DNA of 55,621 bases, counting the filler, from Jimgerdemannia flammicorona (lineage: Eukaryota), in NCBI GenBank assembly GCA_003990765.1. It is 2 parts of 2 records of this genome, joined end to end, with 100 filler letters (N's around TTAATTAATTAA, not from the genome) between each part and the next. Parts side by side here need not be neighbours in the genome. Positions count along the whole stretch, not along the records: positions 27,863 to 55,621 come from RBNJ01000607.1; 1 more part is not named here. One strand, given 5' to 3'. Of this stretch, positions 3,732 to 50,692 are shown piece after piece (the first letter of the stretch is position 1; the number at the start of each line of letters is the position of its first letter). The notes beneath the pieces are model-generated. The model was not told where the DNA came from. It did not search any database and was given only the letters and a program-made list of their open reading frames with translations. Made by a program: the position numbers and the translations under genes.

Positions 3732-3763
3732 ATTGAAAAAATGTTTGAATTTGAGATTCCAGC

Positions 3764-5679: not shown

Positions 5680-5760
5680 ATCGATAGTTATCTATTACCA
5701 AAACATTGTAAAAAGTATTGTCTGAGTCTTGTGTCACCTGAATGTTACTGATGAAAGATG

Positions 5761-17800: not shown

Positions 17801-18131
17801 TGCTGGAACTATTTGAGAAAAATGTCCAAACGATGGATTGGAATCAAGTCGCCAGATTCCCCAAATAGGCTTAAAATCTCGTATGGAGGAATCCAAGTCA
17901 ATTCTGCACCGGAACATGACGTCGCACTATTCAACTGGCTCCTATGGCCTATCATTTTCTCGAGCCTCTTCCTTTCCATAAAATTGCGAAACGCGACCCA
18001 CGACCCGCGCAATGAAGCGTTTTTTTTTTTTTTTTCATGCACCTAAAATCCGCTCCGTCAACGTTACCAAATAAGATCTTTGTATTTTCTGTTTACAACT
18101 ACATCACAATCCCTTTAAAAACCTCTCTACT

Positions 18132-19732: not shown

Positions 19733-19799
19733 TTCGAGTCTAGTGGGTTTGAGTGAAATAGGTTCAAACGCGCCAAAATTCCAAAATTGTGGACTGGGT

Positions 19800-19822
19800 G
19801 TCACGTGGATGGCTGGCACGTG
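19800..19822. promoter_or_regulatory. Two CACGTG E-boxes about 70-90 bp upstream of the oxidoreductase ATG
   Basis: GTCACGTG at 19800-19807 and CACGTG at 19817-19822. A function as bHLH sites is inferred. Confidence 0.4.
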
Positions 19823-21104: not shown

Positions 21105-21226
21105 TAGAGATGGATAGGATCGAACCGATTACAAAAAAAAGTTCCAGAAATCCTTACCCAATGGATCGAATTATCGTTCACCTCCATAATCAACCGCAGT
21201 TCGATGGCGATCCGATCCAGTCTCTC
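21105..21226. mobile_element. Possible small MITE relic with about 17-bp terminal inverted repeats
   Basis: AGAGATGGATAGGATCG (21106-21122) vs CGATCCGATCCAGTCTCT (21208-21225). TAG start is hAT-like. No TSD found. Confidence 0.4.
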
Positions 21227-24200: not shown

Positions 24201-24559
24201 AAGTCGATGGGGTGGGAGGTGGGAGGAATGCATCAATCCTTCCTCCCCAACCCCGGAATCATCACAGCGACTTTGACCGGCCCAACTTGTAGAAGGTGTG
24301 CATTTATCGTAGAACTCCGTTCGTCGTCATCCAGCACCGCCGTCCACCAATAATCGCTTGTTCGGGGAAGAAAAGAAAAAGAGGAAGCCAGGAGAGACAT
24401 TGTTCTGTGACCCGCCGCATCAGCTCCTCGCGCCAAACGCCATTCGTTAAGTAGCAAGCAAACTTTCGTGGCAAGAAAAGAAAAAAAAAGAAAAAATCCA
24501 TCTCCGAGGTATTTACAGCCGCGCCATTTCCACACTCTGGCTCACCGCCCAGCACCATT

Positions 24560-26287: not shown

Positions 26288-27317
26288 TGTGACGTAAGAG
26301 TGACGCGGGAGGCGAGGTGTATACGCTTGTGTGGCTGGTATGTTGGGAGAGGGGGGGAAGGGTTGACGGCTAGCTGTTGCTTGGCTCTGGAAATTTAGCG
26401 TAGTAGTAGGAGCGGTTGTGGCTGCTACTGTTTTTTTTTTTTTTTGAGGGTGTAGGGAGGTTGTTGCTGCTCCTCAAGAGATGCGTTGCGATTGTTACGA
26501 CTTGTTTCGTGGAGGGTGGGTCGTGTGGGAGGATGGGCGAGGAGGTGGGAGTTAGCGTTATTTTTTTATTTTTTTGGGGTTCTTTCTTTCTTCCGACGTC
26601 GGTTGTCGTTCGTTGCGTTGCGTTGCAGTCGATGGGGGGGTAGTCGAGGGGAAGACCAGTCACATAAACCAAAGACTTGTCAAAACGTAAAGGCTCTTTG
26701 CCGGGGAATGCAAGGAGAGGGCCTGGTGGGCGGGGGACGTCTCGAGTTCGGACGGGGTGAGAGAGGGAGAGCGGACGAAGAGCGGAGGATTGGGGCGAGG
26801 CGTCGGTCTCAAAATATCGTCAAAGGCAGCCACCCTCGGTCGTGCAAATGAAAGAAAAGGCAAAGAGCGAAGATGAGGAGGCACTGTCACTTTTTCTGCT
26901 TGCGGCTGATCCAAAAAATTTTAACTCTCAATAATACACTCTGACAGAGAACAGTAGCACATGGGTGGATGATTCAGCATCATAATATGTCATACATATC
27001 CTGCCCTTGCCAACCAGGTTCTCTTGTTTACACACACACACACACATCACAACCCCACCCCTTGCATGACTGAATAATGAAATGAATGAAATGAAAATTT
27101 CGTCAGAGATCCACCCTTCCCAATACTTGTCCAATCTAGGTCATGTCAACTCCGACACCAGACACCGCGACCAGCCCAGCCCCTTGGAACCATACACATA
27201 CACAGATTTTCCGCCCCGCACCGGTGCTATGCATGAACTTAGTCTAAATTTTCCCTTGAGCGTGGGTGCCATATGATTACTTGTCTCATTTATTTCAATA
27301 TTTTTCAAAAAAGCAAC

Positions 27318-29435: not shown

Positions 29436-30615
29436 CTACGCCGATACGTTCAATAAAATATTGCTACCCCCATTCTTCCCCCCGGAACTCGGCAGATACG
29501 TCACATTCTTCGCCTGTGCCAATGTCGACGCGATATCCTTGGACGCCTCAATGCGACGGAACTCAATCAGGCCCTCGCCGGCTTTTTCCAGGGCCTGCGA
29601 GATCAATTCTGCCGCCTGGGCGTCGCCTTCTGCACGGATGATGGAAGCCAATTTTTCTTGTTCGGCCTGTAATGGGGTGGCATTATATAGGCGTGAGATA
29701 AAGGTAACTTATTGGGAGGGGAGGCACCCGAAATAACGAATAAGCGGTGAAAGAAGATATCGACGCGGTGTATGTAAAGTTAGGTACCTTCTCAACAATA
29801 AATTTGGCTCGTTCAGCTTCCTGTTGCGCAATCTGTTTCTGTTCGACGGCGTTCGTGAAGTCTTTGCCAAAAGTCATGTGAGTCTGAATAAGGTAATAAC
29901 CAGTATCAGTTAATATTGCATCAATTATCCCCGGTCCAGAGAGTGTGTCTTTTCACGCCTTTTATCCAATCGAACCCTGTGTCATAGAGACAAAGGCAAA
30001 CGTGCAGAATAAAGCAAGGAGAAGACAACATACAATTGACACATCTTCTAACTGAATGTTGAACTCCATCGCCCTCTTTACGAGATCTTCCCTGATCCTC
30101 GACGACACAACCTCCCTCTGGGTGATCAGCTCACCCGCATCGAATTGGGCGACTATGCTCTTGAGTACCTCATTGCCGATGGAGGGGAGAACACGCTCAT
30201 CGTAGTCCATGCCCAGATTCTGGTAGATAGAGGGCAAGTGGGAGATCTCGGGCCTATGCAGAACGCGGAGGGTCAGCGAGACCATCTGCATGTCTTTCGA
30301 GCCGGTTGTTGTAGAGATGTTTCGCGGCTTTGTGCGCACGTCGAAGACCACAGCCCGCTGTAGCCAAGGGACCAGAAAGTGAGTGCCCTCACCAATGGAC
30401 TGCTGCTTAACACCTTGGATACGGTCGAAAATGACCGCGCGGTGGCCGCCTTGGACTAGAAAGTGGAGTGGTGAGAACAGAATGAGTTTTGGCAAGTAGG
30501 GTTTGGGGGGACTTTCAGTCCAGAACTCACCATCATACATTGCGAGCTGGACACCTCCGATGGCAGTACCGATAGGAATTGCCCACTTTGCGAGCTTCTC
30601 TAGGACGACGGCCAT
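29436..30615 (-). CDS. PHB1: Prohibitin 1 (mitochondrial SPFH/band-7 protein); 4 exons
   Basis: Exons 30615-30531, 30455-30034, 29883-29788 and 29666-29436, GT-AG. Motifs [66 protein letters not shown]. Confidence 0.96.
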
Positions 30616-30989
30616 GGGGGGAAGGGGAGCGGTGCAGAACAGCGCAGGGAGCAAACAAACAAAAATTTCAACATCGTGTTCCGGGGAGCGACGTCACTCA
30701 CCGGCCACACTGGTGGCAGTTGACTGGTTGGATAGGAAATCCGGTTTGTAAGCTTTTCGACTGGTTCCACTACAGAAATGTGTATTTATACCCACCTCCC
30801 TCACATCCTCTATCTGTAAAATATTTCCCCTCCTCTTTGTACATGTTACTTTCTGTATTCAAAATATTCAAACTCTTTAGTATCTTGGTCAGTATACTTC
30901 AATATTAGAATAGATAGAGTAAAATATATACTTCTAGATTTCTCTTAGAGTAAAGAGTCTATTAGTACTCTAAACAGAGAGGCCCCTTT

Positions 30990-32595: not shown

Positions 32596-34643
32596 TACCT
32601 TTCACCAGTAACATTCAGGTAACACAAGACTTAGACAATACTTTTGGCAATGTTTTTGATAGAAGGCAACTAATAACATAGATAGCAACAATTATACTGA
32701 TGAGTGTGTTTGGCTAGGAGAGCAGTAGTGCCTTTGACTGGCAGCATATAGAAAGGAGGAGTAGTGATGGTTTGGGAATACCAGGGCCTTCTATAGTAGG
32801 CCATGGTACTGGTAGTGGAGAAAGAGGCAGATTGAGACAATGAGAAGGAAAGAGGATGACCTTTGCAGATAAGGTCAAGATGGAGAGAATGGCATCCAGG
32901 CTGGATAGTTGGCTGGGCCTGGAGAAGTCTTCAACAGCTGCTGTTGGGAGGCAGGGAGGGGCTCTTTTGGGAGGGTTGGGCAGTAGGAGAGAGGGGGGAG
33001 TAGAGGCTGGAGATGTGACTGCTGATAGAGCTGTAACTGGGGATTTAGAAAAAAATCCAGATATGACAGTGGTTGGTAGTTCAGGACAGAGGGTGGGCAT
33101 GAGGCACAGAGATCTGGTGGATGGTATGACAGAATTGGTAGTAACACCATTGCTCAAGAAATCAAGGTCAGAATTTGCTGTCACATTGTACTTCCAAGGC
33201 TTAGTGGTAACTATAAGGATAATCTTAGGACTGGTGATACATGAGGTAAAGGGGATGGCTTTGGTGAAGTTCCTGAAGGGGAAAGAAGGGATCAAAGTTG
33301 AGTTTGAGAAAGAGGAGTCATTGTTGGTGGCCATGAAGAAGGGGGTAATGGTGGGAGGAGTAGTGGTCTCTATGGTCAGGTGCATACACTGAGACTCCTG
33401 AGTAGTATAGTTGATGGTACTGGATTTACCAATGGTGTCAAGGGAGAGAGTCAGAGAGTTGATTGTAGAAGTAGTCAAGGAGTATGGAGAGATAGTAGAT
33501 ATCAGGTTCAGAGTCTGAGAGAGTACTGAGCTCTAGACTAGAGACATTAATGTCCAGATAAGACTGGTTAGAAAGGAGAATACAGAGAAGATAAGGAACT
33601 GGTCAGTGTCTCTTAAGTGGGGCCCAGTGGAGTACAAGGTCTCATGGGTGAAAGGAATATAAGAGGAGGAGAAGGATTTGCTGGAGGATCTTGAGGATCT
33701 GGTAGGAGCAGTTGAGAAGAGATGGCTAGCTTAGAAGGAGTATGAAGCCAAGATGATGATAGAAATAGTAGATAGCAAGAGAATCAGGATGGACCAGGTA
33801 ATCTGGGAGAAGATGCAGGGAAGGTGAACTCAGAAGGAGCTGCTGGTGAAGTTGGGAGGCAGTGGAGCTAGCAGTAGTATAGGAGAAGATGGGGCAGGAC
33901 TGTAGGAGAGTGCCTGGGCTGGAGAGCCCAGAATGGCCCAAGATAGGGCCCAGGAGGGACTAAGTGAGGAGGGACAGGGTGGTATGGCAGTGGATATGGA
34001 AATGAGTAAGAGTATACAACCTCAGTATAGCATGCCAGGTGGGGCAGGGGGTGAGGAGGAATTGCTGGATGTACCTGAGGAAGAGTGGGATGAATTGGTG
34101 AGGAGAAGTGCTTTGGTGGACCTAGAGATGGAGGTTGAGAGGGTTGCTCAGAGTACTGCAGAGGCGGTGGATGAGAAGAAGTGGCTGTAGAAGGCTCTGG
34201 AGGGGGTGGCAGTAGAGGAGCTGGGGGGAGAGGACTTCCAGATCATAGAAGATCAATATTGGGAGGAAATTCTTTATGGTGAGAAGGTACTGAGGAAGGT
34301 TAGAAATGAGATTCTGATAGTACTCTTAGAATTAGTTGAGTACCAAGTAGATGATCAGTAGGAGGAGGAACTTTGTGTGATAGCAAATGACTAGGCGGTA
34401 TACTTATAGAATTCAAGGAAGGGCTTGGAGAAGTGGCAAGTGGTCTGTATGAATTATAGGACTAAAATGGAGGTGGTGGATGGGGTGGAGTGTCAGGAGA
34501 TCTTGGAGGCATTGGATGCTCAGGCTGTAGTGGAGGGTGATTTGGAAGTAGAGCAGCACTTGGATATAGCTGGGGATGAGATAAGTATGGAGTACTAGGC
34601 TGGGTTCTCAAATTCAAACATTATTCAATATAAATAGTATAAC
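32596..34643 (+). mobile_element. LINE family 1 copy D, 5' part (5' end, ORF1, first codons of ORF2)
   Basis: 5' motif TACCTTTCACCAGTAACATTCAGG. ORF1 fragments at 32856-33392 and 33933-34190. Interrupted at ORF2 codon 5 by the Gypsy element. Confidence 0.88.
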
Positions 34644-35416
34644 TGTAATAGAATTAACAAGTGAACAGGTGAGATGCGATGAGTAATTATGTGACCCAGC
34701 GAGTGATGACATCATCATATGATCAAGCATAGCATATAAATAACAAATAATGTAGAAAAATGATGTGAAAAACAATATTTAGCTTATCTCTAACAATCGG
34801 CACTGCAGTAACAGTTGCCATAGCAGCTGATTATTGCCTAGTAATTGAGGTCCTGATTACAAAATTGTTTTTACCAAAAACTACTTAACAAAGGTCACAA
34901 TTACAAACCTCATTATAGTTACCAAATTAGTCACTCATACTTAGTCAGAAATCATGAACCAACTTGTATAAATACCCCCCAGTTTCCATCTAAAATAAAG
35001 CAGTTTTAGTTTAGTCCTTGATACAAGAATCAAGTTCTCCCCACACATATACATTCCCCTGAGTCTTAGTAATGATATCTAAGTAACTTTAGTATTTCTG
35101 ACTAAACTCCAGAAGCCTAGCTAACTTCTACCAGAACTGAGACCAGTATGTAAATTCCCAAAGACTTAAGTAAACTCATTGAACCTAAATTCTAAGGTGA
35201 ATTCAGTCTATATACAGCAAAGGACAAGACCCTTGAAATAGGACAAAAGAGAAAGACCTTTGAAATAGAAGGCACTGCTGCTACAACTACTTATAAGCAA
35301 GTGCTTCCTCAAACTGAAGGCTTCTTGGTATACATTGTGTACTAAGTCTCTAAGTAATAGTCCACTTCCCTAATTATCCAAAGGATAAGAGAGGGGTAGA
35401 AGTGAGAGTTATTATA
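34644..35416 (+). repeat. 5' LTR (TATA box TATAAATA at 34967; terminal CA mutated to TA)
   Basis: Colinear with 49278-50050. Differences are almost all transitions. Confidence 0.95.
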
Positions 35417-35419
35417 ACT

Positions 35420-35431
35420 TGGTAGCAGCAG
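35420..35431 (+). promoter_or_regulatory. Primer-binding site TGGTAGCAGCAG (probably initiator tRNA-Met)
   Basis: Starts 3 nt after the 5' LTR. TGGTAGC is complementary to a ...GCUACCA tRNA 3' end, typical of eukaryotic iMet tRNA. Confidence 0.7.
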
Positions 35432-35499
35432 ATTACCAGTCAAGAAGGTACCAAGAACATACTCCTGAAGTTGGAACAAGACTAACCTTGGACAGGAGT

Positions 35500-37333
35500 A
35501 ACCCTCAGAACCAACTGTGGATCCTTAAACCAGAGCCAGAGAAGCCCTTGCCATTAGGACCAGGTGGTATCAGGAAACCACAGACCCAAGGACCCACTAG
35601 CTTGTAATTGACCAAGCTTACAAGGATCTATACTAGACCTTTAGGATATACCACCCAGAACTTAGGAATATTGTCAGCTGCCGTAAGTTCTATAAACTTC
35701 TCCATGGACATATTGGAATTACTAGGACTCTAGAATCTACTGCTGCAGCTACCCAGAATTTTCTATATTATATCACACTCTCTGCTGCAAGAGAAGTAGC
35801 TGCCAAGTGGATTGCCTCTAACAGATATCATCATACCCCTACCAAGACCTTCCTCTACTACAGGCTAGTTGTATACTATGCCTCTGCTATAACCAGATAT
35901 GAGAATGAGCAAGCAGGCCAGCCATCCCCTACTGCTGAACAAGAAGCAGACCCATCTACTCAGCCAGAGACTGATATCCTCTTTGAAGGACCTAGCCAGT
36001 ATGAGGACACACTATCTCATCAGAAAAGGGAGTCAGATAAAGACTCTACAGGTTACCAGTCTGACAATAGCTAACTAGGAATAGTAGGCCTAGAAATTTA
36101 TCAAGGAACCACAGGTCAAGAAGATCAGACCCCAGAACCAACCCAGCCACCTATATAGAGATTTGGTTTACCCTCTCTCACAGAACTCTTTGACCTGATA
36201 TCCAGGAATCAAGTAACTCCAAGTCATACAGCACCACAACCCCACCAAGCAGAACAATCTTCAGGAGAATCTACCCCAACAGACCCACTACCAATAGTCA
36301 ACACAATGGTAGATGTCAATATTGCAGCACTGACTACCCAGCTAGCAGCTCTAGCAGAGATAGTAGAACAAATTGCTGAATAAAACAAACCAACCAAGAC
36401 TCTGTAAATCCCAACATTCAGTAGAAAAAACAACAACATCGAAAACTTCATCAATGCAATTGATACAGACTACTGAGCAAACCAATGAAATGACAACTGA
36501 GTGCCTATAGGAATGCTCACCAACAACCAGAACAATACCCTTCAACAGCTGTTTGCTATATCAGCAGTACAAGTGAAAACAGTAGCCATATTCTTCACTG
36601 GAACAGCAACTGAATTCTGGTGAATCTTGGAACAATACTAAGTAACCTGGGAAGACTGCCCTCTAGTCAATAGACAAGCATCTGCCAACAATAAACCAGG
36701 TTGGGATGACTATGAAGCAGGCCCAGGACTCAAGGCCTTGCTACTGACCAAATTCTGAAATATGGCCTATATATAAGAAACTTGGAACAAACTGTCCCAG
36801 GTGAAGTTCCACAAGAATGGTGAGGAGGATCTAGAGACCTTTGCCACCAGAATGGATGCCTATCTCAAAACTGTTGGACTTACCTATTAAGAGAATAATT
36901 TGGCCATCAATGGTACTAGAGCCAACCACCTTTTTGCAGCTCTACCAGACTGGCTCACCCAGAAGATCAAGGAACAAGGGCTTTCCCAAGGATGCCCCCA
37001 CTACTCATGGTACTTTGCCCAAGTACAAAGAAGAGCTTGTGAAATCCTTGCTGCACAAGCCCCATGAAATCAAGAAAACAAGAAGGATAATAAAGATAGA
37101 AGGAATCCTACTAGAAGAAATGACCAAAGATATGATCAAAGGAATGATCAAAAGAACCAATAAAACCCCAGAGGACCCAGACCTCCTACTGAGGATGAAA
37201 AGAAGCAGCTCCATGAAAAGGAATTGTGCTTCATATGTAAGAAGGCAGGACACATCTCATTCAAATGTTCTGAGAAGAGAAACAGAGCAGGTGAATCTAG
37301 TAACCAGAACATTACTATTATTAGAGAAGGTCC
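35500..37333 (+). pseudogene. Gag with C-terminal CCHC zinc knuckle (CFICKKAGHISFKC)
   Basis: One frame (codons at 35643, 37224) with stops only of the TAA/TAG/TGA type derivable from CAA/CAG/CGA/TGG. IPTFS..IENFI gag-like motif. Exact start unclear. Confidence 0.85.
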
Positions 37334-37437
37334 AGGAAAGAAGAATCCTCAAAAGCACCTTTCTCTAGTAACATTCAGGTTACACAACCCTTTAGCAACA
37401 CTTTCAACACAGTTTCTGGAGAAAAGCTACTAGTATC

Positions 37438-39457
37438 ATAGTGATCAACGAGCATCTAGAGGTGCATACTGGGCAGGGTGGCCCTGGAGTGTTTGAATGG
37501 CAGCAAGTGGGGAGAGGCCCCAGCTTGGGGGGAAGTATGAGGGGCCTGCTGGCAGGGGGCCGCAGTAGAGGAGGGGACAGAGCTGGAGGTTGAGGGTCTG
37601 GCAGGGTGAGCTTTGTGGAGAAGGTGAAGGGGGGTTGGCAGGGAGCTGGACTGGAGAGCTGGCTGAGAGAGAGGAAGGTACTGGTGGCAGCTTCCAGGCA
37701 GCAACCTCTTGGGGGTACCTCTCTAGCGGGCCATAGGGATGGGGCTGGGGGGGTAGCGGCTGGGGCAGGGACTGCTGATGGGGGTGTGATGGGTGATCTG
37801 AAAAAAAATCTAGATGGGACTGCTGATAGTGAGCCGAGCGGTGGGAAGGGCACAAGGCCCAGGGACCTGGCGGATGGTGTAACGGGACTGGCGGTGGCTC
37901 CGTTACTCAAGAAGTTGATCTCGGCATTCGCAGTCACACTGTACTTCCAGGGCTTAGCGGTGACAGCAAAAATAGTGTTGGGGCTTATTGCTAAGCAGGT
38001 GGCAGGAGCGGCTTCGGTGAAGTTTCTGAAGGGACTGGAGGGGGTGGAGGTGGGATTTGAGGAGGTTGAACCGCTGGAGGAGGCGCTGAAGATTGGGTTA
38101 GTGGTTGGAGAGGTGTGTATTCCAATGGCAAGATATTTGAAATGGGATCCGAGGGTGGTCCAACTGCTGGTGAAAGGAGTATCCATGATGACAGCAATGG
38201 AGATGAGGAAGAGAGTGGAGGATGTCATGGCAGAGTATGGAGAGGTGGTGGATATTGGATTCAGGGTCTGGGAAGGGACCATGCTCAGGACTGGGGATGT
38301 GGATGTGAGGATTTGGCTGGCTGGGAAAGAGGCTACCAGGAAGATGAGGGACTGGCCTTCAGTATTGGTCTGGAGAGCTTTCCTGTGCAAGGTGACATAG
38401 GTGAAAGGAAGTGAAGAAGAGAAGGAAGATTTATTGGAAGTGCTGGAGGAGCTGGATGGGGCTGTAGAACAGCGAGCTAAGGCCTGGAAGACTTTCGAGG
38501 AGTCAATGCTCCTGGAGGTGGTGGATGGAAAGAGGATTCGAGTGGACAGGTGCAGTGGGAAAGGACTCAGGGACAGAAGAGACAGAAGGATCTGCTGGCT
38601 AAACTGGGGGGTGGACCACAGAAGGATGTGAGTATGAAGACAGGTGTAGAAGGGACCAGAGCGAGTGTCTGGGCTGATGAGAGGAGTGGGAATGATGGGG
38701 CAAAGTCAGGGAAGACTAAGGAGGCAAAGATTAGTGACCTATATGCTAATGGCACCTTGGAGGTTTGGGATGAAGTCTGGGAGAATTCCCCCACCCCTTC
38801 CCCTCTTATCAGGTGTGGCCCGGCTTCCAGGAACAAGACATGATGATGCTAGGGACCCAGCAGGTGAAATTTAGCATTCCGGAGGTATTGGATGGGGACC
38901 GAGTAGTGGTGGCAGGAGAGGAGAAACTGGTGGATGTCCTGGATGTGTGGGATGAGGACATGAGTGTGGGAGCTGATACCATAATGCTGGATGGAGGGAG
39001 GCCAGCGACCCCTGGTGGAAAGGAGGTGGGGAACCTACTTTGGATGTGCCAGATGATGAATAACCTGGCAGCAGAAGAGCTGGGGGAGGTGGACTTGCGT
39101 GGGATGGGTGATGAGCACTGGACAAGAATTTTGCAGGGGGAAGGAGTGGTGATGGCGATGAAGGCGGAAATTCTCACAGTGTATCTGGAGGAGGAAGGGT
39201 ATGAGGCAGATAAGGAGAGGAAGGCGGAGTTGGTGGTGGTCGCTGGAGAGAAGGCTGAGTACTGTTGGAACAGGTGTCATGGGTTGCAGCTTTGGCAGAA
39301 GGCTTGCATTAAGTATCGAGAGAATTTTGAGGAGAAGGCTGATGAGGAGATGAATGAGCTGTTGGCTGGACTGGAGGCTCAGAGGGCTGAAGAGGAGGAG
39401 GTGATGGCTGAACATAATCTGGATATGGCGCAGGAGGAGAGGGGCATGGAGCAGTAG
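37438..39457 (+). pseudogene. LINE copy G ORF1 (start ATG decayed to ATA), disrupted
   Basis: Fragments 37606-38400, 38401-38631 and 38813-39457. Copy E retains the ATG at the homologous site. Confidence 0.85.
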
Positions 39458-39487
39458 GGATTGATTGAGAACAAACTGTATTTTACT

Positions 39488-42400
39488 ATGAACAGTACAA
39501 CCAACATTTTTTCTTTGAATGTGAATGGGCTGAGGGACGCAGTTTGATGCAGGAACATTTTTATTTGGTTGAAGAGATTGGAGGCCGATCTCTTCCTCTT
39601 GCAGGATGTCAGGTGCGAGGATGATGCTGATAGGATGGAATGGACTAAGGAATGGGGTGGTATGGCGATTTGGAACAGCAAGGTCGAGATTCTGGTTTGG
39701 AAAGACAGAGGGGAGATAAAGGATGTGAGGAGCTGGGGAGAGAGACTGGTCTGGGGTGAGTGGATTCATACAGGTTGGGAGTCAGTCACAGTTGGCTCCT
39801 GTTACTGCCCTGCTGTGTGGGGGGAGTGTGTGGATTGGGTGAAAGGGCTCCTGGAGAGTGGGATCCTTGCTGAAGCTGGGTTGGATATGCTTGGAGGAGA
39901 TTTCAATATGGTTCGGGATGTATGGCTGGATAGAACTGATGGAGGATGGGGTGCAGAGAGCAGGAGTGGGGGGTTAGCAACATGGGAGGAGGTTGAAAGG
40001 CTAGGAGCACTGGTGGATGCTGGTAGGGAGCACTGGGGGGACAGGAGGGTATATACGCATTGGGCTGGAGGTCTGGGGACAAGGATTGACTGGATTCTGA
40101 TGGCTGACTGTTGGGGCTGTAATGTTTGGAAGGTGATAGAGGTAGAATGGTGTCCATGGTCAGATCATTGGGGCCTCTTGGGACAGGGGTGTTTTGGGGG
40201 AAGTAGAGATGGGCCTGGACATTGGTGCCTAAATTCCTCCTTGTTGGATGATGAGGCCCAGTGAGAGGAGTGGGCGAATGACATTCAGCTGAAGGTGGCG
40301 AATTGGCGGCAGGAAGGGGCCATGATTGGGGTTCGGTGGATAAGGATGAAAGAGATGGCCAGGATATATTGGAGTGAGGCTGGCAGAGTGGCTGAGAAGT
40401 AGCGAAGGTGGAAAGTGTGTTGGGCTTCTACTAGACTGGCAAGGCTCCTGGAGGAGTGGGTGAGACTGGCAGCAGTGGAGGGAGAAGAGGATTGGAGAAT
40501 AACAAGGGTGAGGATGGAGGTTGGGGAACTGCAACAGGTGCTGTGGGAAGAGGAAGAGTCAAGGGTGCAAGGCCTAGTGGCATGGCTTCATTGGCAGGAG
40601 CTGGAGGAAGGGGAGAGGCCTTCCAAGTTTCTCACAAGGACACTTCGAGCGAGAAGGGTACAGCAGTGATGGGAAGGGGTACTTGACTCGGATGATGTAC
40701 TAGTATATGGTGTACAGGACATCCTTGGAACACTGAAGGCATGATGGAGTGGATTGTGGAGTGAGAAGGAGGGTGGGGCAGATGCTACAGCCATTGACCA
40801 ATCATTAGAAGACTGGCACCCACCACAAGCTGAGGGACTAGGTGACCTGGTGATGCCTGTAAAGGAGGACGAGATCCACCAGGTTCTTGCTGCGACAGCC
40901 TTGGGTATGGTGCCTGGGGAGGATGGCCTCCCCTGGGACTTCTGGAAGCGAATGGTTGGAGTCCCGGGCATATTGGGGGAGTTGACAGCACTGTGTGACT
41001 CTATATTGCAGTCAGGGAGATGGGTGGGGGAGCAAGACCTTGGGCTGGTAACGCTGCTTTATAAGAACAAGGGAAGGCGAGAGGATTGGAAGAACTGGCG
41101 GCCAATAATGTTGCTAGATATGGACAGGAAGTTGGTGACTAAGGTGGTGGTCGCAAGACTACAGAAGGTAGCCCAGCAAATTGTGGGTGCTGAGCAGAGG
41201 GGCTTCATAGGGGGTTAGCTTATTAGAGATGGTACAGCCTGGGTACATAGAGTTATTGAAGGTGCTCGAGCCTGTGGACTAGATGGGCATCTTGTCTTCT
41301 TGGATCAGGAGAAGGCTTATGACCGGGTGCGGCAAGTCTGGCTGGCAAAAGTGTTAGATAGAATTGGAGTTCCAGGCCCATTTCGGTCAGCAATAGTCAG
41401 CCTACTGGAAAGGAGTAGGGCTGTACTCGTGTGCAATGGGCATTGAGGGGTGGCTTTCCCACTGGGTAGGGGAGTGCCCCAGGGGGACCCACTGTCCCCC
41501 ATTTTGTATGCTCTGTCCTTGGAACCTCTAATGGACAGGATTTGGCGGAAGATCATGGGGCTCTCTATCTATGGCATTGGCTGGAAGGTTGGAGCCTTTG
41601 CGGACGACATGGTGGTTGGTTTGGGAGTGACTGCAGATGTCAAGGAGCTCCAGAAGACAGTGGAGTGGTATGAGGTGAACTCTGGGGCGAAGCTGAATTG
41701 GCATAAGTGTGAAACAATGGTGCTGGGCAATGGCTTGGTGGGCAGAGAAGTTATTGAAACAATTGTCCCCACCGGAGAGGCAGTGCAGTACTTGGGCATC
41801 TATTTGTCGGTCTATGGGTCTGTTTTGCCCAGGCTGTGGTAGGAGCAGAGGATTGGAATTTGGGAGGAGAACTTGCAGGGTTGGGGGGGGTAGACACTTC
41901 TCTCTGGCTGGAAGGATCTTGATTTTGAATGTATACTGGCTGCCAAAGCTGTGGTATTTGGCCTATCATCTGGACTTCCCAGCCTGAGTAGTGAAGAGAT
42001 TGGTGAAGGTGGCCAAGGGATGGATTTGGGCTGGCAGATGGAGTCAGATTGGTTGAGAGACTTTGTCCCTACTGGTGGCATGAGGTGGTCTTGGGCTGGT
42101 GGACTTCCTCAAAAGACTACACTGCTTGAGGGCTTGGTGGCTGAGGAGGGCGGTGGAGTTGTATAGAGGGAGCTGGGTCCTCCTGCTGCAGAAGATATGG
42201 GAGAGGTGGACATTGCCTAGAGGCTTGACTGGTGATCTTCTTTCATTAGTTGGGCTTCAGAACACTACGCAACTGAGATATAAAGGCTTCTGGTGGGGGA
42301 TAGCCGAGGGGGCACACCACATTGGTATTCACTGGCAAGGGGATGAGGGGGAGAGGGCTTGGGGCCCAGTGATGTGGAGATGGAATAGCATTCTTCTGGG

Positions 42401-43145
42401 AGGCATACCTTTACTGGAGTTCAACATTAGTGATGGCATCGAGTGCCAAAGGGGTCCAGGCCAGGATCTGTGGCCTAGTGGTTGGCAAGGAGTTGGAATT
42501 GGTGAGAAGTGGGACTGGTATGGGGTTTGGACCTAGAGTGCCACAGTGAAAAATTGGATGCTGCCAAAGTACTGGGTAGTCTGGTTGCATGTGCTGAGGA
42601 GGAATATGATGCTAAACTTCCACTCAGGACACCTTGTTGTAGGGGGCTGCTTTAACTGCGAGGAGTGCCATAATGTAGGGCAGGAAGGGGGATTGGTACA
42701 GATGCCAGAACATTGGCTAGGGGAGTGTGAGGTGTTGGGAGACTTTTGGCAGGCCATTGGGAACTGCTTGGGGGTGAGGCATAGGGGTGATGATGTACGG
42801 GAGAGGTGGGAGGACCTGAGGGATCGATTGATAGGAGGGGTAGGGGAAGAGTGGATTACTCTAGGCTGGGCATTGGCTATTTGGGTTGGGCTGGCCAGAT
42901 ACTGGCTATTTGTATTTGAGGAGGAGAAGCGACAGAGCTCAGGGAGCCAGTTGGCAAGGTGGCAGTTCCTTATGGAAGATACCTTGATAGGCTGGTGGCT
43001 TGGTTGGGGACTGCAGGGGGGTTGAAAGCGCCACTTGGTGGTGAAAATCTGTGGTCAGAGTGGTGGGAGAGTTGGAGTTGTTAGTGAGAGGGTGGTCTTT
43101 ATACGTGAAGAAGTGGGGTGGGGCCCCCCGATGGGGATCGGATAG
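39488..43145 (+). pseudogene. LINE copy G ORF2: APE endonuclease, RT, C-terminal CxxCxxC..HxxxxC motif; disrupted by stops
   Basis: SLNVNGL, LLQD, GGDFN, TRIDWIL, SDH; PGEDG, WRPIMLL, DQEKAYD, QGDPLSP, AFADD, YLG; CFNCEECH...EHWLGEC. Confidence 0.93.
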
Positions 43146-43236
43146 TGGGTGGTGTTATTGTATACTTATTCATAGACTGGTAATAAAGATGGAGTCCAAG
43201 AGACTATAAAAAAAAAAAAAAGGAAAGAAGAATCCT

Positions 43237-43659
43237 GAAAATGTCATCAAAGTACAGAAGATATGATATAAGACTATCATCCCTACTAAGGCCCACCCAA
43301 CTGATGCTAGATATGACCTCTACAGCAGTCAAGATCTCACTATTCTACTAAGTACCAATGCTACAGTGCAAACAAGGATTGCAATACAAGCTCCCAAAGG
43401 TACATACATCTACCTTACCAAGTGAAGCAGTCTAGCCAAAGAGTTTAACATTGGACTAGAAGGAGGAGTAGTTGACCAAGAATTTACTGGTGAAATCTGT
43501 GTCATCTTGCGAAATTTTGAAGACATATCATTTGAAGTCAAAACAGGCCAAAGGATTGCCCAAGCAATCATTGAAGAAATCCATCAAAATCTCACCATTG
43601 AAGAAGTCTCTGAGCTCTCTCAGACAGACCATGGCAAGAAAGAATTTGGATCTACCAAT
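43237..43659 (+). pseudogene. dUTPase domain of the Gypsy polyprotein (trimeric type, motifs I-V)
   Basis: DARYDL (AGYDL), K*SSLA (RSSLA), GVVDQEFTGEI, GQRIAQ, TDHGKKEFGST (RGxxGFGST). Confidence 0.92.
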
Positions 43660-43980
43660 AAATCTCTCAGTCAAAAGGTCACTACTATGAAAGAAGATAA
43701 TGAAAACTGGTATAAGAGAATTGTAGATGGTTATGCACTATGTGGACAATGCCCTCATTCTATTCAAATGTACTGTATGGAACATGTTGGTGAATGCCAT
43801 GCATGTCTCTCCAAAGTTTTCAAAATTCAATCCGAGAAGTACCAAGCCCAACAGGCTGAGAAATCCAAATAAGACAACTCTCCTTATGAAGGATGGGAAG
43901 AAACTGACTTCAAGGAGACTGAAAGCAATTGGGACAATAATGAGGATGAAGAGCTCAACACTATCAAGAAGAAGAATAGT

Positions 43981-46900
43981 TACATCAAGTTCACAGGTCA
44001 AGTCTACAGACAGAATGTCAATGTCTTGCTTGATAGTAGTGCTTAGTGCTCCCAACGAATCAAATCGAATCGAATTTGACCCAAACTCGATTCGATTCGA
44101 TCAAATCAAGGGTCCAATTCAATTCAATTTGAATCAAATCAAAGGTCCAATTTGATTCAAAGTTCGATTCAAACCTTAATTTTCAAAATGTAATAACTCG
44201 ACGAAAACTCATCCAAATTTAATATATTTTAGCTTGTTAGATTCATCGTATTAATGTGATTCTAACAAGCTAAAGTACATTAGATTTGGATGAGTTTACG
44301 CTGAGTTATTGCAATTTGAAAATTAGGGTTTGAATCAGACCCTCAATTCAATTTGACTTTTGATTCTATTCAAATTGATTTGAATTGAAAAATCCCCAAT
44401 TCAATTTGACTCATTTAACCCTTAATTCAATTCGATTCGAATTGATTTGACTCATTTGGAAGCACTAGTAGTGCTACTGGAAACTACATCAGCACTAAGA
44501 CCACTAAGAGAATTGGAGCCCGAAGCAGACCAGCCACTAAGAAAAGAAGTGTCACCTTTGGTGATGGTAAAACTGCACCATTGACCAAGATCTGTGAAGA
44601 TCTCTTACTCAAGATTGGCAAATATCAAGAGAAGTTGGATTTCAGCATTGTAGATCTCCCAAAACAAGACATTATCCTAAGAAAAGCCTGATTGACCCAG
44701 TACAACCCAGATATCAACAGGAGAACCAATGAGGTTGACCTGACCCATAAAGGCAGAAAGATCACCCTGATACCCCAGGAAGGTACCAACTACCAAGGAA
44801 TCAAAATCATCTCTGCTATTCAAATGAAAAGACTCTCTCAAAAAAAGGGAAATACCTACTTCATCTGTATAGTATAAGAAGTCACTGAAGCTACAACTAG
44901 CCCAATCCCAACAGAAGCCTAAGAACTATTTGAAGAATTCCAAGATGTATTCCAAGATCCCCAAGGACTTCCACCCAAGCGCCAAATCCAATATAGAATT
45001 GATCTTATTCTAGGATCTGAACCCCCATACAAGAGTATCTATCAACTGGCCCAATCTGAGCTCAAGACTCTCAAGGATGAATTGACCAAACTACTGACCC
45101 AAGGATATATTAAACCCAGCCACTCTCCATTTGGAGCCCCCATTCTATTTATCAAGAATAAGGATGGCTCTCTGTGAATATATATTGACTACAGAGCCCT
45201 CAACAAGATCACTATCAAGAATTAGTATGCCTTGCCTAAGATTGATGAGTTGCTACACCAAATTTTCAAGACTAAGACCTTTTCTCTACTAGACTTGCAA
45301 AATGGCTACCACCAGATTCTCATTGATGAGAAGGACATTGAGAAGACAGTCTTCTGAATATAGTTTGGACATTATCAGTTCTGAGTCATACCTTTTGGTT
45401 TGACCAATACACCAGCAATATTCCAGTATCTGATGAATGATATCTTTGAACCACTCCTCAACATCTGTGTCCTTGTGTATATTGATGATATACTAATCTA
45501 CAGCGAAACAGTAGAGCTATACTATACCTATCTCAGACAAGTACTGATCCTTCTGCAAGAACACTAGCTCTATGCTAAGATAAGTAAGTGTAAGTTCTAT
45601 CAAGACCAGATTGAGTATCTAGGATATATCATCTCTGCTGAAGGCATCAATGTGGACCCCTGAAAGGTATCAGTCCTTAAGGATATCACTATCTCCACTA
45701 CTCTCAAGCTACTTTAGTGCTTCCTAGGTATTGCTGATTATTACCAAAGGTTTATCCAAGAATACTCTGCTATTGTAGCTCTACTGACCAGCTTGGCCCA
45801 CAAAGGAGTAAATATCAAAGCTGAATGGACTCATGAATACACTCTGGCTATAGACCATCTCAAGAGACTCCTTACTGAGGCCCCAGTATTAATTGTACCT
45901 GACCCTACCAGGCCATTTACTCTGATCACAGATACCTCCGATATTGCTATTGGGGTAGTACTCAGCCAAGAAGATTGCTCAGTGGCCTACCTTTCCCAAA
46001 AACTCAAACCAGCTGAGACCCAGTATACCACCCATGAGAAGGAACTTCTGGCCATTGTTACTGCACTCCAGGAATGGTGCTATTTCCTCCTAGGACAACC
46101 TTTTGTGGCCTACACTGATCACTATGCTCTGTGGTATATTCACACACAGTCTATGCTGATCCATAGACAAGCCTGCTGGATGGAAATCATTGCCAACTTT
46201 GATATATATTTTAGGCAAAACCAACCATGTGACTGATGGTTTCTCCAGATATATGGAAGATAAACTTATCTTCATGGTCAAGATAATTGGAGACCTTACC
46301 CAAATGATCAAGGATGGCTACTAGCAAGACAGCCCCCTGATGAAATTCCTTCAATTCTGCTAAGACCCAAAGGCCAAGATCCCAGAGCCCATAAGGCAAA
46401 TGTCTAAGAGATTCACTTACCATGATGGACTTATCTACAGAGACCATGACAGAGTGGTTGTACCCAACAATAGTACTCTGCAACTCCAGATTATGTAGGA
46501 ACTCCATAATACTCCTGCAGGAGGACATTTTGGTTTTGAAAAAACCTACAACCTCCTCTTAAGAGAGTTCTACTGGTCAAAGATGACCAAGGACATCAAA
46601 GACTTTGTGGCTTCATGTGGGATGTGCCAAAGGTTCAAAAGTGATAATAAGCTACCAGCAGGACTCCTACAACTGCTACCAATTCCAAGTCACAACTGGG
46701 ATCAGATTGCAATAGACTTTATTGTCTAACACCCCAAGACCAAGGTAGGATGGGATGCCATTATGGTATTTGTAGACTACCTAAGTAAACAAGCCCATTT
46801 TGTACCCATCAAGACTACTGCTACAGCACCAGAGATTGCTGAGATTTTTCTCAATCAAGTATTCAGGCTACATGGCATGCCTAGCACCATTGTATCTGAC

Positions 46901-47788
46901 TGAGATGTCAAGTTCACAAGCAACTTCTGGAAGGCATTCTTCTCTCTCTATGAAACTAAGCTGAAGTTCTTTACTACCTACTATCCTCAGACCAATGGTC
47001 AAACTGAGTGAACCAACAGGACTCTCAAACAGATGCTTAGCATCTTCTGCTGTTACAAGCAGAATGATTGGGATAAGTACCTAGCCCATGCTAAGTTTGC
47101 CTACAACAACAGTTAGCAAATATCTATGAAGAAGACTCCATTCTTCCTGAACCATGGTCAACACCCGAGGACTCTGAGTACTACTGTGAAATCAGCAGTC
47201 CCAGCAGCCCAAGATCTGACTAAGATCATTTCTGATCTTACTTGAATAATAAGAGATGCTCTCATAGAAGCACAAGATCACTAGACCAAGTATGCAAATC
47301 TGAAGTGAAGAGAAGCCTCCTACAATATTAGTGACATGGTCATACTTAGAACAGACCACCTCCACCCTAATACCCTGGCACAACAACCAGCCAAGAAACT
47401 TTGTGCTAGAAGAATTGGACTATACAAGATTATGGAAAAAGTCAGCAAAGTCAACTATAAGTTGCAACTTCCCCACAATATCTGAGTATACCTAGTATTT
47501 CATATCAGTCAATTGGTGAACTACTATGAGAACTCATTCTCTGAGCATACAGTTCCACCACCACCCCCAATTAGGATCAATAATCATGAGAAATTCGAAA
47601 TTGAGGAAATACTTGACCACAAGGTCTGCAAATATCCCAAAACAGTCAAGCAGTTTTTCCTGATCAAGTGGAAGGGTTACCCCATCCATGACACCACTTG
47701 GGAAAAAGAAGAAGCTCTGAGGAATGTATGCAAAGCTCTCCAGAACTATATAGAAACACTCACCCCCCAACAAAGGAAGGAACTATAG
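43981..47788 (+). pseudogene. Pol: aspartic protease (split by MITE), RT (YIDD about 45478), RNase H, integrase (HHCC, core), chromodomain
   Basis: LLDSS(G)A|TGNYIS; SPFGAPILF..KDGSL*IYIDYRALN; PFGLTN; ITDTSD..HEKELLAIV; H..GGHFG..CGMC; FEIEEILDH..FLIKWKGYPIHDTTWE. Confidence 0.93.
44044..44467. mobile_element. hAT-type MITE (424 bp) inserted in the protease active-site motif
   Basis: TIRs TAGTGCTCCCAA / TTTGGAAGCACTA, 8-bp TSD GTAGTGCT (44036-44043, 44468-44475), subterminal TCGAA/TTCGA repeats, and a central palindrome at about 44166-44337. Confidence 0.93.
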
Positions 47789-48366
47789 CTCTAAGAATTA
47801 GAGCATATAGTGAGCAGAAGGATACTATATATTTTATCCAGAAATATATAATACCAAATATTGAAAAAGGAACACTATGGATAACTAATAAGAAGATACC
47901 CAAGAAAAGGACAATCTAGTATAGTACAGCAAAATGCATTTGAACAACTCCATTTCATACCATCTATGTTATCTCTGCTGGATGATGATAAATACTTCAT
48001 ATGGAACTTAGGAAAGCTGACAATGTTGAAACCAGTCTAAGTCCATCCATATGACAGATATTGTTACTAGGAATTGCTTTAGATTACAAGAAAGTCTATT
48101 TCCAAAAAGTTCAAATCCCCAGCCATAATAATGGGAGCCCTTGCCCTAGACAAGAATGGCCAGTCCTTACAAATATGCCAACCAGACAAAAAAAAAAATA
48201 GACCAAGACCTGTTAACCCTGTGTAACCACAACTATAAGTGATATGTAATATCTTTGAAATCAGGATTTTCTCATGTGACCAGCATATGCCCCACTTATA
48301 GTAATAGATCACACATTTTGCTAAAAAGCATGACTGAAAGAAGATCACACCAGATAGATAAATAAG

Positions 48367-48374
48367 TATAAATA
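48367..48374 (+). promoter_or_regulatory. Internal TATA box (GTATAAATACCC, same context as the LTR TATA) upstream of the accessory ORF
   Basis: 12-mer identical to that at 34966-34977 in the LTR. About 70 bp upstream of the inferred ORF start. Confidence 0.55.
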
Positions 48375-48438
48375 CCCAAGGTAAGAATACCCCACAACTC
48401 TCATCCCCCTCTCCTCATAAAGAAAAGACAAGACAAGA

Positions 48439-49242
48439 ATATCCACTACTTACTGCCAAACTGTCCACTATAGCCAGCCCCTCCTAAGCTAGGTTGACTG
48501 CCTCTTTGGACATATCCAGATTGCTATCTAAGGAAGGAACCACCACTCAGAGGCCCTTAACCTCTCCAGCTAGAACCTAGGACATTATGTCCTTAACTAT
48601 CATGAAGTCATCGAAAGAGCCTACCTTGCCACCAGCCACCTAGAGATCTAGTATGAATACAAGATTGGCCATCAACTCCTCCAATGGGCAAAGAACCTGC
48701 CCACTGACCAAGTCTCAGAATGGACCCACCTGGACAGATATGAGCAAAGACTTACCAAGAAGGTCCATCAAATCATGTACCATGTACTCTTTGCAATCCC
48801 CAACCTCAACTATGTCCAACTGAAGGATTTCCAGAACCTCTCTTTCTCTGAGATTGATGAACTTGAGATCAAGGTAGCCCAAGAAGCCAACTCCTGGATC
48901 TCTCTCAAGTCTACTGACTGCAAACCCTACTGGAGCCCCCTCCTGAATGACAACCCAGACCAATGGCTCCAAGGCCTCTCTGATCTCTTTGAAGGATCAC
49001 CTATCTGAATAGATATTCCCAGACATAAGGATCAAGAACTCTACTTGGATGGTCCCAACTGCATCAGATGGAGAACTCCTATACCAGTGCCCATCCCAAT
49101 GCAAGAACCATTTGCAGACCTCATTAACTTCTCCATCCTGGACAGTGAGTCATCAGCAACCACCTCCCCTGCTACTGAAGAAGATGGTGACAATCCTGAG
49201 GAAGAGTCTCCACCTTTCTCTCTCCTGGTTCTCAATTTCTAA
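48439..49242 (+). pseudogene. Accessory ORF (about 267 aa) of unknown function between chromodomain and 3' LTR
   Basis: Single frame joining ORF-track pieces 48775-49008 and 49045-49242. All five internal stops fit C>T/G>A. Start ATA is probably a decayed ATG. Acidic C-terminus. Confidence 0.7.
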
Positions 49243-49264
49243 ATTAATGAGAATGTTGATTTCT

Positions 49265-49277
49265 AAGGAGGAAAGGA
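49265..49277 (+). promoter_or_regulatory. Polypurine tract AAGGAGGAAAGGA
   Basis: Immediately precedes the TG of the 3' LTR. Confidence 0.85.
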
Positions 49278-50050
49278 TGTAATACAATGAATGAGTGAAC
49301 AGATAAGATGTGATGAGTGATCACATGACCCAGCGAGCAATGACATCATCATACAATTGAGTGTAATATATGAATAACAAACAATGCAGAAAAACAACAC
49401 AAAAAATGATATTTAGCTTATCTCTGACAATCAGTACCATAGCAATAGTTGCCACAGTAGCTGATCATTACCTAGTAATTGAGATCCTGATCATAAAGTT
49501 GTTTTTACCAAAAACTACCTGATAAAGGTCATAATCACAAACCTCATTATAGTTATTAAATTAGTCACTCATACTTAGTCAGAAATTGTAGACCAATTTG
49601 TATAAATACCCCCCAGTTTCCATCTGAAATAAAGCAGTTTTAGATTAGTTCTTAATATAAGAATCAAGTCCCCCCTCCATATACACATTCCCCTGAGTCT
49701 TAGTAATGACACCTAAGTGACTCTAGTGTTTCTGACTAAACTCTAGAAGTCTAGCTAACTTCTGCCAGAACTGAGACCAGTATATAAATCCCCAAAGACT
49801 TAAGTAAACCCATTGAACCTAAATTCCAAGACAAATTCAGTCTGTACACAGCAAAGGACAAGATCTTTGAAATAGGGCAAAAGAGAAAGACCTTTGAAAT
49901 AGAAGACACTGCTACTACAACTACTTATAAGTGAGCACTTCCTCAAACTGAAGGCTTCTTGGTATACATTATGTACTAAGTTTCTAAGTAATAGTCTACT
50001 TCTCTAATTATCCAAAGGATAAGAGAGGGGTAGAAGTGAGAGTTATTACA
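49278..50050 (+). repeat. 3' LTR
   Basis: TGTAATA...TATTACA, colinear with the 5' LTR. Confidence 0.95.
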
Positions 50051-50692
50051 ATAACTAAAATATTCTCTTTGAATATGAATAGGTTGAGAGAGGCAGCTTG
50101 ATGAAAGTACATATTTGGTTGGCTCAAGAAATTGGATACAGATCTCTTCTTACTATAGAATATATATTATAAGGTAGATGTGGACTTACAGAATTAGACT
50201 AGGGAATGAGGGGGGGGCAGCTATGTAGATTGGGAGGATGGGTATCCTAGTTTGAAAGGGGATGGGAGATATTGGAGATATTGGACAATGAGGGAGTCAG
50301 TTGGTATAGAGAGTTTGGAAGAGGCCTGGTTGGAGCCCTTTGACAGTTAGATCATGTTATTGCCTAGCAAAAAGAAGAGAACAGGTAGATTGGATCAGAA
50401 ATTTGAGAGAGACTGGTGTCTTGGGTGAGACAGAGATCAACTGCCTGGGGGGGGATTTTAATGTAGTGAGAGATAATATGGTGAACAGGACTGATAGTGG
50501 GAGAGGAATGAGGAGCAGAAGTGGTGGGTTAGATGATTGGATGGAGATGAAGAGATTGAGTTCTTTGGTTAACTCAGAGAGATAGTTCTGGGAAGAGTAT
50601 CAAATTTATACTTATTGGGTAGCAGGGCTGAGTTCCAGGATTGACTGGATATTGACAGCAGAGTGCTGGGGAGCAGATATCTATACAATAAC
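50051..50692 (+). mobile_element. LINE copy D continuation (endonuclease domain)
   Basis: Resumes the ORF2 start (..TKIFSLNMNRL), GGDFNV, SRIDWIL. Joins seamlessly to 34643 after removing the LTR element and one ATAAC. Confidence 0.88.

Follow-up and report, generated by a model that had tools for sequence, protein, structure and literature searches.

Deoxyuridine triphosphatase (dUTPase) domains have been described within the polyproteins of several fungal retrotransposons. In Novikova et al. 2010 (PMC2864245), chromoviruses of Postia placenta are reported to have a dUTPase at one of three sites: N-terminal in Pol (PosPlaTy3-3), C-terminal in Pol, or between protease (PR) and reverse transcriptase (RT). 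Earlier dUTPase elements from Phanerochaete chrysosporium and Tuber melanosporum (Tmt1) are cited in the same paper, and independent acquisitions of the enzyme are suggested. For fungi, Rodriguez et al. 2017 (PMC5408684) mention no position other than PR-dUTPase-RT, and neither do Arkhipova & Yushenova 2019 (PMC6431247); the same kind of order is found in the bdelloid elements Juno, Vesta and TelKA (PMC5408684) and in the giant elements of planarians (PMC6431247). For Entomophthora, a preprint (10.1101/2023.09.13.557621) describes an enrichment of the dUTPase Pfam family alongside retroelement domains. In betaretroviruses, the fusion of nucleocapsid (NC) and dUTPase is a transframe protein made by ribosomal frameshifting (PMC4531489), and the betaretroviral dUTPase was likened to that of fungal chromoviruses by Llorens et al. 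2009 (PMC2774666). Here, a chromovirus at positions 34644-50050 of a 55,621-nt stretch of DNA from Jimgerdemannia flammicorona (assembly GCA_003990765.1) is described; this whole stretch, two parts joined by filler letters, is referred to as the window, and the element lies in the part derived from RBNJ01000607.1.

The element is likely an old Ty3/Gypsy chromovirus copy, by now dead, in the genome of a fungus of the Endogonales (Mucoromycota), and its family encodes Gag and Pol in one frame, in which a nucleocapsid zinc knuckle is followed by a dUTPase, a Cys/His spacer and the protease. In the window copy this order is interrupted by two nested inserts foreign to the chromovirus, a full-length long interspersed nuclear element (LINE) of 5.87 kb (37350-43221) and a miniature inverted-repeat transposable element (MITE) of 424 bp (44044-44467, given without strand); features are on the + strand unless marked otherwise. 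The knuckle CFICKKAGHISFKC (37227-37268, codons 310-323), of the form C-x2-C-x4-H-x4-C, is located upstream of the LINE, and the inactivated dUTPase domain (43237-43659, codons 364-490) downstream, the split point being the exact start of the dUTPase domain. The LINE is bounded by a 15-bp target-site duplication (TSD), ggaaagaagaatcct, at 37335-37349, which is repeated exactly at 43222-43236, directly after a 13-nt poly(A) (43209-43221). Excision of the LINE and one TSD removes 5887 bp and lets codon cct (37347-37349) meet gaa (43237) in frame, with ...EGPGKKNP continuing into ENVIKVQK.... The MITE is flanked by an 8-bp TSD, gtagtgct (44036-44043 and 44468-44475), and is inserted in the active-site codons of the protease; its removal together with one TSD takes out 432 bp (144 x 3), leaves the reading frame intact and brings LLDS(S)ATGNY back together. 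Both inserts were removed in silico, and the frame was then searched with hidden Markov models (HMMs) built from relatives, called own HMMs here. A single frame of 1206 codons, with 27 stops read as X, was obtained, and it holds everything from the knuckle through RNase H. The dUTPase in it was identified by PF00692 (E 9e-27, 93.8 bits, profile positions 3-128 of 129, in the translation of 43237-43872) and by the own HMM on the excised frame (E 3e-44).

The predicted join was confirmed by a metagenomic relative, P0001 (proteins are given P numbers, metagenome loci L numbers). This protein of 485 aa is 85% identical over 95% of the query. When longer proteins were searched through a word index, with the dUTPase and spacer as query, it was the lone match among 599 candidates. 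It is an unbroken gag - CCHC - dUTPase - spacer protein lacking the LINE, and it crosses the predicted join without a break (...GEGPEKKNPENVIKVQK...). By tblastn, residues 1-289 of P0001 were aligned to 36513-37367 (82%) and residues 282-484 to 43231-43839, on the far side of the LINE. The dUTPase of P0001 is matched by PF00692 with an E of 4.6e-33, and all five motifs are aligned (AGYDL, RSSLA, VVD..F.GE, RIAQ and GFGST). The view that the dUTPase stretch is an artefact, namely a piece of an unrelated host pseudogene or of another element joined to the knuckle only by removing the LINE, is favoured by nothing more than the need to reconstruct the join in the window copy. It is refuted by P0001, which like P0019 carries the same junction uninterrupted, while the 15-bp TSD fixes the excision exactly, and it is practically dismissed here.

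Upstream of the knuckle and in the same frame, the capsid-like part of gag was located at 36513-37226 by tblastn of P0001; it contains in-frame stops, and no Pfam family was matched in it. Downstream of the dUTPase follow the conserved C-x-H-x4-Y-x7-C-x2-C spacer (43660-43869, from an alignment of eight rows) and an in-frame TAA (43870-43872). The protease is divided by the MITE into an N-terminal part reaching the active-site LLDS(S) (43996-44035) and a C-terminal part (44468-44745); the own PR HMM matches over the MITE junction (codons 604-709, E 7.8e-28), RVP_2 is matched only weakly in Pfam (E 0.016), and the active-site DSGA reads DSSA in the window copy. RT and RNase H occupy 45151-46200 (RT 45151-45633, RNase H 45826-46200), with the own HMM placing RT at codons 845-1005 and RT-RNase H up to codon 1194, and with Pfam matches to RVT_1 (6.5e-30), RT_RNaseH_2 (1.3e-29) and RT_RNaseH (5.2e-28). 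Three-frame reading revealed a single frameshift, an indel of about 1 bp, between RNase H and integrase (46215-46235). The integrase (46469-47524) consists of Integrase_H2C2 (46469-46642, 7.1e-20), a core (46706-46987; rve 9.8e-5, short of the cut-off) and SH3_Tf2-1 (47333-47524, 7.2e-14), and is followed by a chromodomain (47594-47752, Chromo PF00385, E 8.8e-11).

The element thus has the pol order PR - RT - RNase H - IN and a chromodomain C-terminal to the integrase, after SH3_Tf2-1, as in Ty3/Gypsy chromoviruses. A preliminary description of this DNA, made from the sequence alone, had proposed a fungal chromovirus with knuckle, dUTPase and protease in one frame and without a gag/pol frameshift, and on all of these points it was borne out: the only frameshift is the one after RNase H, and excision followed by HMM search gave matches for dUTPase, RVT_1 and Chromo, with zf-CCHC (E 0.0043 in P0001) and rve staying short of the cut-off.

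As the TAA codon at 43870-43872 is in frame and separates dUTPase and spacer from the protease, it might be a true gag terminator; Gag would then have the dUTPase at its C-terminus, and pol would be expressed by stop-codon readthrough. However, P0011 and P0018 pass through the aligned linker into LIDSGASGN and LIDCGASGN without a stop, and P0004, P0137, P0163, P0167 and P0177 also continue from dUTPase into protease. The window copy holds about 39 other in-frame stops, and the 98 transitions against 4 transversions between its LTRs (long terminal repeats) fit a decay of CAA to TAA. A terminator at this site is therefore highly improbable, and the codon is read as decay.

For the distribution of the domain order, an exhaustive HMMER search with P0001 returned 28,801 proteins at E <= 0.001, of which the best 150 were listed, and a search with the RT-RNase H of the window copy returned 1800 proteins at E <= 1e-20, of which the best 120 were listed. 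CCHC-dUTPase or dUTPase-protease order was found unbroken in ten diverged metagenomic relatives: seven carry CCHC and dUTPase on one continuous protein (P0001, P0004, P0008, P0011, P0019, P0137, P0167), and seven carry dUTPase and then protease (P0004, P0011, P0018, P0137, P0163, P0167, P0177). P0167 is intact, its 1767 aa containing Ty3_capsid, CCHC, dUTPase, RVP_2, RVT_1, RNase H, integrase and Chromo in this order. P0004 (1046 aa) extends from gag homology over knuckle and dUTPase to protease, P0011 from knuckle over dUTPase and spacer to protease, P0137 from knuckle over dUTPase to protease, and P0018 from dUTPase over spacer to protease. In P0008 and P0019, gag or knuckle is continuous with the dUTPase. 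No gag/pol frameshift is present in P0167, P0004, P0011 or P0137. Relatives which are 34-45% identical to P0001 have more than the enzyme domain in common with it: they also share homology in gag, a dUTPase placed behind the knuckle, and the spacer motif. Since gag-sharing relatives and RT relatives carry the same order, knuckle-dUTPase-protease is a widespread and old family trait and not private to the window copy.

Among the best 120 RT relatives, the nearest are metagenomic chromoviruses with 46-52% identity. PF00692 is carried by ten of these 120, three with the order dUTPase-PR-RT (P0163, P0167, P0177) and seven with the order PR-dUTPase-RT. The latter (P0170, P0178, P0185, P0201, P0204, P0239, P0254), together with the metagenome locus L012, likewise have this enzyme within a polyprotein of the Gypsy type, and an RT about 46-50% identical to that of the window copy; their dUTPase is located after the protease, whereas that of the window family is located before it. 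L012 was obtained from a metagenome DNA scan with a three-row alignment, which gave 12 loci with the dUTPase only in L012; this locus is of the PR-dUTPase-RT type and has gag and pol in separate frames, and a dUTPase is absent from L002. No relative was found when P0001 was used for the metagenome DNA scan, and an ESM Atlas search with P0001 gave no usable match.

Of the 150 listed P0001 matches, most are dUTPases of cellular type or tandem ones. In 25 of 158 scanned dUTPase-bearing proteins, the domain was matched two or three times, mostly in tandem on one chain (for example, P0002, P0003, P0005, P0006 and P0010). Such tandem double and triple dUTPases, which are pseudo-trimers made of a single chain, explain the matches with the highest scores; three-stretch matches of the P0001 search, considered as gag + dUTPase relatives, were rejected as being such tandem proteins. 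In P0061 (632 aa), a dUTPase is followed by RVT_2, a Copia-type RT, which shows that the enzyme has also entered Ty1/Copia-like polyproteins.

The best solved relatives of the dUTPase, found via P0001, are cellular eukaryotic enzymes (3p48_A, E 3.3e-32; 1q5h_A, 2.6e-31; aligned over 141 residues). The likeness to the cellular trimeric dUTPases (3p48_A, 3f4f_A, 1q5h_A, 2hqu_A) extends over a full-length alignment (E 3e-32 to 3e-31) with the five motif regions aligned; unlike these enzymes, the family's domain is embedded in a polyprotein, and P0001 has a motif-5 His and a motif-3 Phe. Among ten near cellular-type dUTPases, one is from Coniosporium apollinis. Weaker solved matches are 1duc_A (6.2e-18) and 1f7d_A ('POL POLYPROTEIN', 1.5e-13), which we take to be EIAV and FIV chains. 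Since the dUTPase is closer to cellular than to retroviral enzymes, common descent with retroviral dUTPases is unlikely.

With betaretroviruses (MMTV p30 and M-PMV; PMC4531489), the family shares the order NC - dUTPase - PR and the fusion of the dUTPase to the nucleocapsid. However, the window family is encoded in one frame without a gag/pro frameshift, the window element has no env, and the dUTPase scores much better against cellular enzymes of eukaryotes than against retroviral chains of known structure. Judged from the sequences, the resemblance is one of domain order only and convergent. Of the betaretrovirus-like layout seen in the preliminary description, the order thus stands, whereas transframe synthesis and kinship with the retroviral enzymes do not. 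The parallel itself is not new, having been drawn by Llorens et al. 2009 (PMC2774666), nor is the layout unusual, as it is already reported for Postia placenta chromoviruses (PMC2864245); with PF00692 in ten of the best 120 RT relatives, the supposed rarity of dUTPases in fungal Ty3/Gypsy elements was not upheld either.

The dUTPase tree (130 rows, 127 columns) has little power, with 9 of its 126 inner branches starred. In it, window and P0001 form a pair (98 in the Shimodaira-Hasegawa-like approximate likelihood-ratio test, SH-aLRT) apart from the other rows with dUTPase before PR. The RT tree comprises 98 of 122 rows, after exclusion of those with under 300 model positions covered and of most of the named rows from plants; there, the PR-dUTPase-RT elements form a clade of their own (99 SH-aLRT), and P0163 and P0167 are sisters at 98. 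Approximately unbiased (AU) tests were made on a 53-row subset, both groups having been fixed after tree inspection. Holding the gag-related group of nine dUTPases in one clade costs 9.6 log-likelihood units and is not rejected (p 0.334), and placing those of P0163 and P0167 together is not rejected (p 0.10). The trees are compatible with one ancient capture, with repeated captures and with swaps of the domain, and independent capture is neither shown nor rejected.

The preliminary description had inferred a lineage-specific, independent capture of the dUTPase at the gag-pro junction, giving a layout that is otherwise characteristic of betaretroviruses and out of the ordinary among Ty3/Gypsy elements of fungi. 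The separate position of the window and P0001 dUTPases would fit such a capture, as would the nearness to cellular rather than retroviral enzymes, by which betaretroviral descent is made unlikely. However, relatives of only 34-45% identity have the same gag homology, knuckle-dUTPase order and spacer, one origin of the gag-related group is retained in the AU test, the order was published for PosPlaTy3-3 (PMC2864245), and three of the ten dUTPase-bearing RT neighbours among the best 120 have it as well. A capture private to this lineage is therefore improbable, and the old family trait is preferred.

Between dUTPase and protease, a spacer with invariant E..Y and C-x-H-x4-Y-x7-C-x2-C was identified in eight of eight rows (window, P0001, P0011, P0018, P0025, P0089, P0151 and P0152), the invariant residues being E15, Y18, C31, H33, Y38, C46 and C49. 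A structure model of the 70 residues of the window copy has a mean pLDDT (predicted local distance difference test) of 80.8 and consists of a helix, a short hairpin and further helices; the same region of P0011, in a longer model, reaches pLDDT 81-84. In the model, the Cys-x-His lies next to the hairpin and the last helix begins with the C-x2-C, an arrangement which looks like a putative zinc site. The best Pfam match for the spacer, DUF1451 (E 0.081), is short of the cut-off, Foldseek against the PDB gave no match at E <= 10, and VIA-align over 48,161 chains gave a best Z of 4.3, with none of 5 or more, the matches being generic helical ones. A similar Cys motif was observed in P0004, there upstream of the dUTPase.

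In the window copy, the five conserved dUTPase motifs are not intact. Motif 1 has G replaced by R (DARYDL for DAGYDL), the Arg of RSSLA in motif 2 is replaced by a stop, and motif 5 has G replaced by E (KEFGST for KGFGST); a further stop replaces W at 43264-43266. Motif names and roles are given as background. Because of these three mutated motifs, the stops, the frameshift and the splits by LINE and MITE, the copy is unable to serve as a dUTPase element.

Domain order, single frame, insertions and decay were observed directly; what the dUTPase does in live copies, its domain anatomy aside, is inferred from retroviral analogy. In such copies, a dUTPase of the trimeric type would enter the virus-like particle as part of the Gag-Pol polyprotein, beside the nucleocapsid, and there it would hydrolyse dUTP to dUMP and pyrophosphate. 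The lowered dUTP would keep uracil out of the reverse-transcribed cDNA in cells with little dUTPase of their own, the kind of cell in which retroviral dUTPases are described to act (PMC4531489).

Several points weigh against an active enzyme in a uniform one-frame family. In P0001, Tyr of motif 3 is replaced by Phe and Arg of motif 5 by His (HGKKGFGST), so that activity may be low in the lineage of window and P0001. The motif-5 His is also present in P0025, and the Arg is kept in P0004, P0008 and P0011. P0001 is moreover the one close copy examined, and the window RT is a long branch (0.8) of odd composition without a starred placement in the 98-row RT tree. P0014, a gag ending after the knuckle, and P0018, which begins with the dUTPase, both report a longest contig of 8463 nt from the same source. 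They are possibly separate open reading frames (ORFs) on one contig; if they are neighbours, gag and dUTPase-pol may be separate in some relatives, with a stop or a frameshift as the boundary.

The main rival on function is a weakened or partly structural enzyme: the dUTPase fold may have been kept for a mainly non-catalytic role, such as Gag-Pol trimerisation, regulation, or nucleic-acid handling together with the zinc modules. The two substitutions in P0001 would agree with this, as would the location of the domain between the CCHC knuckle and the invariant C-H-C-C spacer, and a low catalytic efficiency of the M-PMV NC-dUTPase is given in a title cited in PMC4531489. On the other hand, the other motif residues of P0001 are intact (AGYDL, RSS, VVD, RIAQ, GFGST), most relatives keep the Arg, and a Phe could presumably still stack on the sugar. 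A non-catalytic role is thus considered rather unlikely, and catalytic function in live copies remains the preferred reading.

The host was assigned by an ORF in the window (29962-30693, - strand) coding for a Band_7 protein, which is 99% identical to prohibitin-1 of J. flammicorona, followed by Endogone sp. at 78% and then many Mucoromycota. This match places the host in the Mucoromycota (Endogonales) and not in the Dikarya, where such elements were described, and is in agreement with the fungal origin given in the preliminary description. Two further genes in the window, both on the - strand, are an alcohol-dehydrogenase-like gene (18132-19840; ADH_zinc_N_2, with ADH_N short of the Pfam cut-off) and a gene for a bZIP transcription factor (24560-25780). 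Among the best 15 matches listed in literature searches, no paper was met that treats dUTPase together with Jimgerdemannia or Mucoromycota, and the host phylum appears, on weak evidence, to be new for dUTPase chromoviruses.

Like PosPlaTy3-3, -4 and -5 and the Phanerochaete and Tmt1 elements (as described in PMC2864245), the element is a chromodomain Gypsy element of fungi with the dUTPase in the polyprotein, and like PosPlaTy3-3, compared by description only, it has the dUTPase at the amino-terminus of Pol, ahead of the protease. Unlike these published elements, which are from Basidiomycota and Ascomycota, it has a Mucoromycota (Endogonales) host, and its family is set apart, again by description, by the extra C-H-C-C spacer. 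What is new is therefore the spacer between dUTPase and protease and the host phylum, and this novelty is modest. It is possible, though doubtful, that together with its metagenomic relatives the family represents a chromovirus lineage of its own in early-diverging fungi. In this lineage, the dUTPase between two zinc modules would be a nucleic-acid-tethered unit, acquired separately from that of the PR-dUTPase-RT chromoviruses and the first one in Mucoromycota.

The borders of the element were determined by direct reading and alignment. The 5' LTR (34644-35416, 773 bp, starting with TG and ending with TA) was identified by blastn and alignment to the 3' LTR (49278-50050, TG...CA), and the five bases ATAAC are found both before the 5' LTR (34639-34643) and after the 3' LTR (50051-50055) as the TSD. 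A primer-binding site, TGGTAGCAGCAGATTACC (35420-35437), begins 3 nt past the LTR, its role being suggested by position and TGG start, and the polypurine tract aaggaggaaagga (49265-49277) touches the 3' LTR. Direct LTRs, short TSD, primer-binding site and polypurine tract are thus all present as in Ty3/Gypsy chromoviruses, and the element without the LINE and MITE inserts has a length of 9088 bp. A paralogous repeat at 3092-5757 (-) is 77-79% identical to the flanks of the chromovirus (32599-34643 and 50051-50682) and is uninterrupted; the flanks being contiguous in it, it serves as an empty-site control for the element boundaries. The chromovirus was accordingly inserted into another repeat, the ORF of which (4763-5725) has no Pfam match.

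Between chromodomain and polypurine tract, about 1.5 kb (47789-49264) contain no Pfam family in any + frame and include an open stretch of 118 codons (48652-49008). This region could be an additional ORF, as in some fungal elements (PMC2864245), or decayed sequence.

The two LTRs are identical at 671 of 773 positions and differ by 102 substitutions (13% divergence) with no gaps, many of them in CA/TA and TG/TA contexts. The in-frame stops number about 39 (12 + 3 + 12 + 12 across four coding segments); with these, the one frameshift, the two inserts and the mutated dUTPase motifs, the element is dead. The observed/expected ratio of CpG was found to be 0.04 for the chromovirus (34644-50050), 0.24 for the LINE and 1.03 for the host-gene region at 18000-27000. 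CpG loss and transition bias suggest a repeat-directed cytosine deamination, methylation-driven or similar to repeat-induced point mutation, in the Endogonales genome.

The larger insert is identified as a full-length LINE because it contains ORFs with RVT_1 (41447-41842, E 1.9e-13; 40745-41218, E 2.4e-4, the latter short of the Pfam cut-off), shares its 5' end with a second copy, and has a poly(A) and a TSD. The second copy (50867-53728) has the same 5' start point (37356-38596 against 50867-52107, 88.5%). At least three LINE copies or fragments are present in the window (37350-43221, 50867-53728, 54146-55529, and 1072-1294 on the - strand). The sense strand of the full copy is G-rich relative to C (G 2233, C 877), and the first 9 kb of the window have a G/C skew which is the mirror image of that of the LINE. 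The MITE has terminal inverted repeats TAGTGCT(C/T)CC and internal inverted arms of 131 nt, and its 8-bp duplication suggests a hAT-like element; no other copy of it was seen in the window self-comparison.

By this element, an early-diverging fungal phylum is added to the hosts of dUTPase-carrying chromoviruses. The intact metagenomic relatives reveal that a dUTPase before the protease and one after it are both common among chromoviruses at about 50% RT identity, and the view of the pre-protease position as a retroviral speciality is thereby weakened. With its nested inserts, transition-only decay and near-total loss of CpG, the window copy is a small and clean case of the silencing and burial of a fungal retroelement, and the Cys/His spacer of its family poses a small question which is within reach of ordinary biochemistry.

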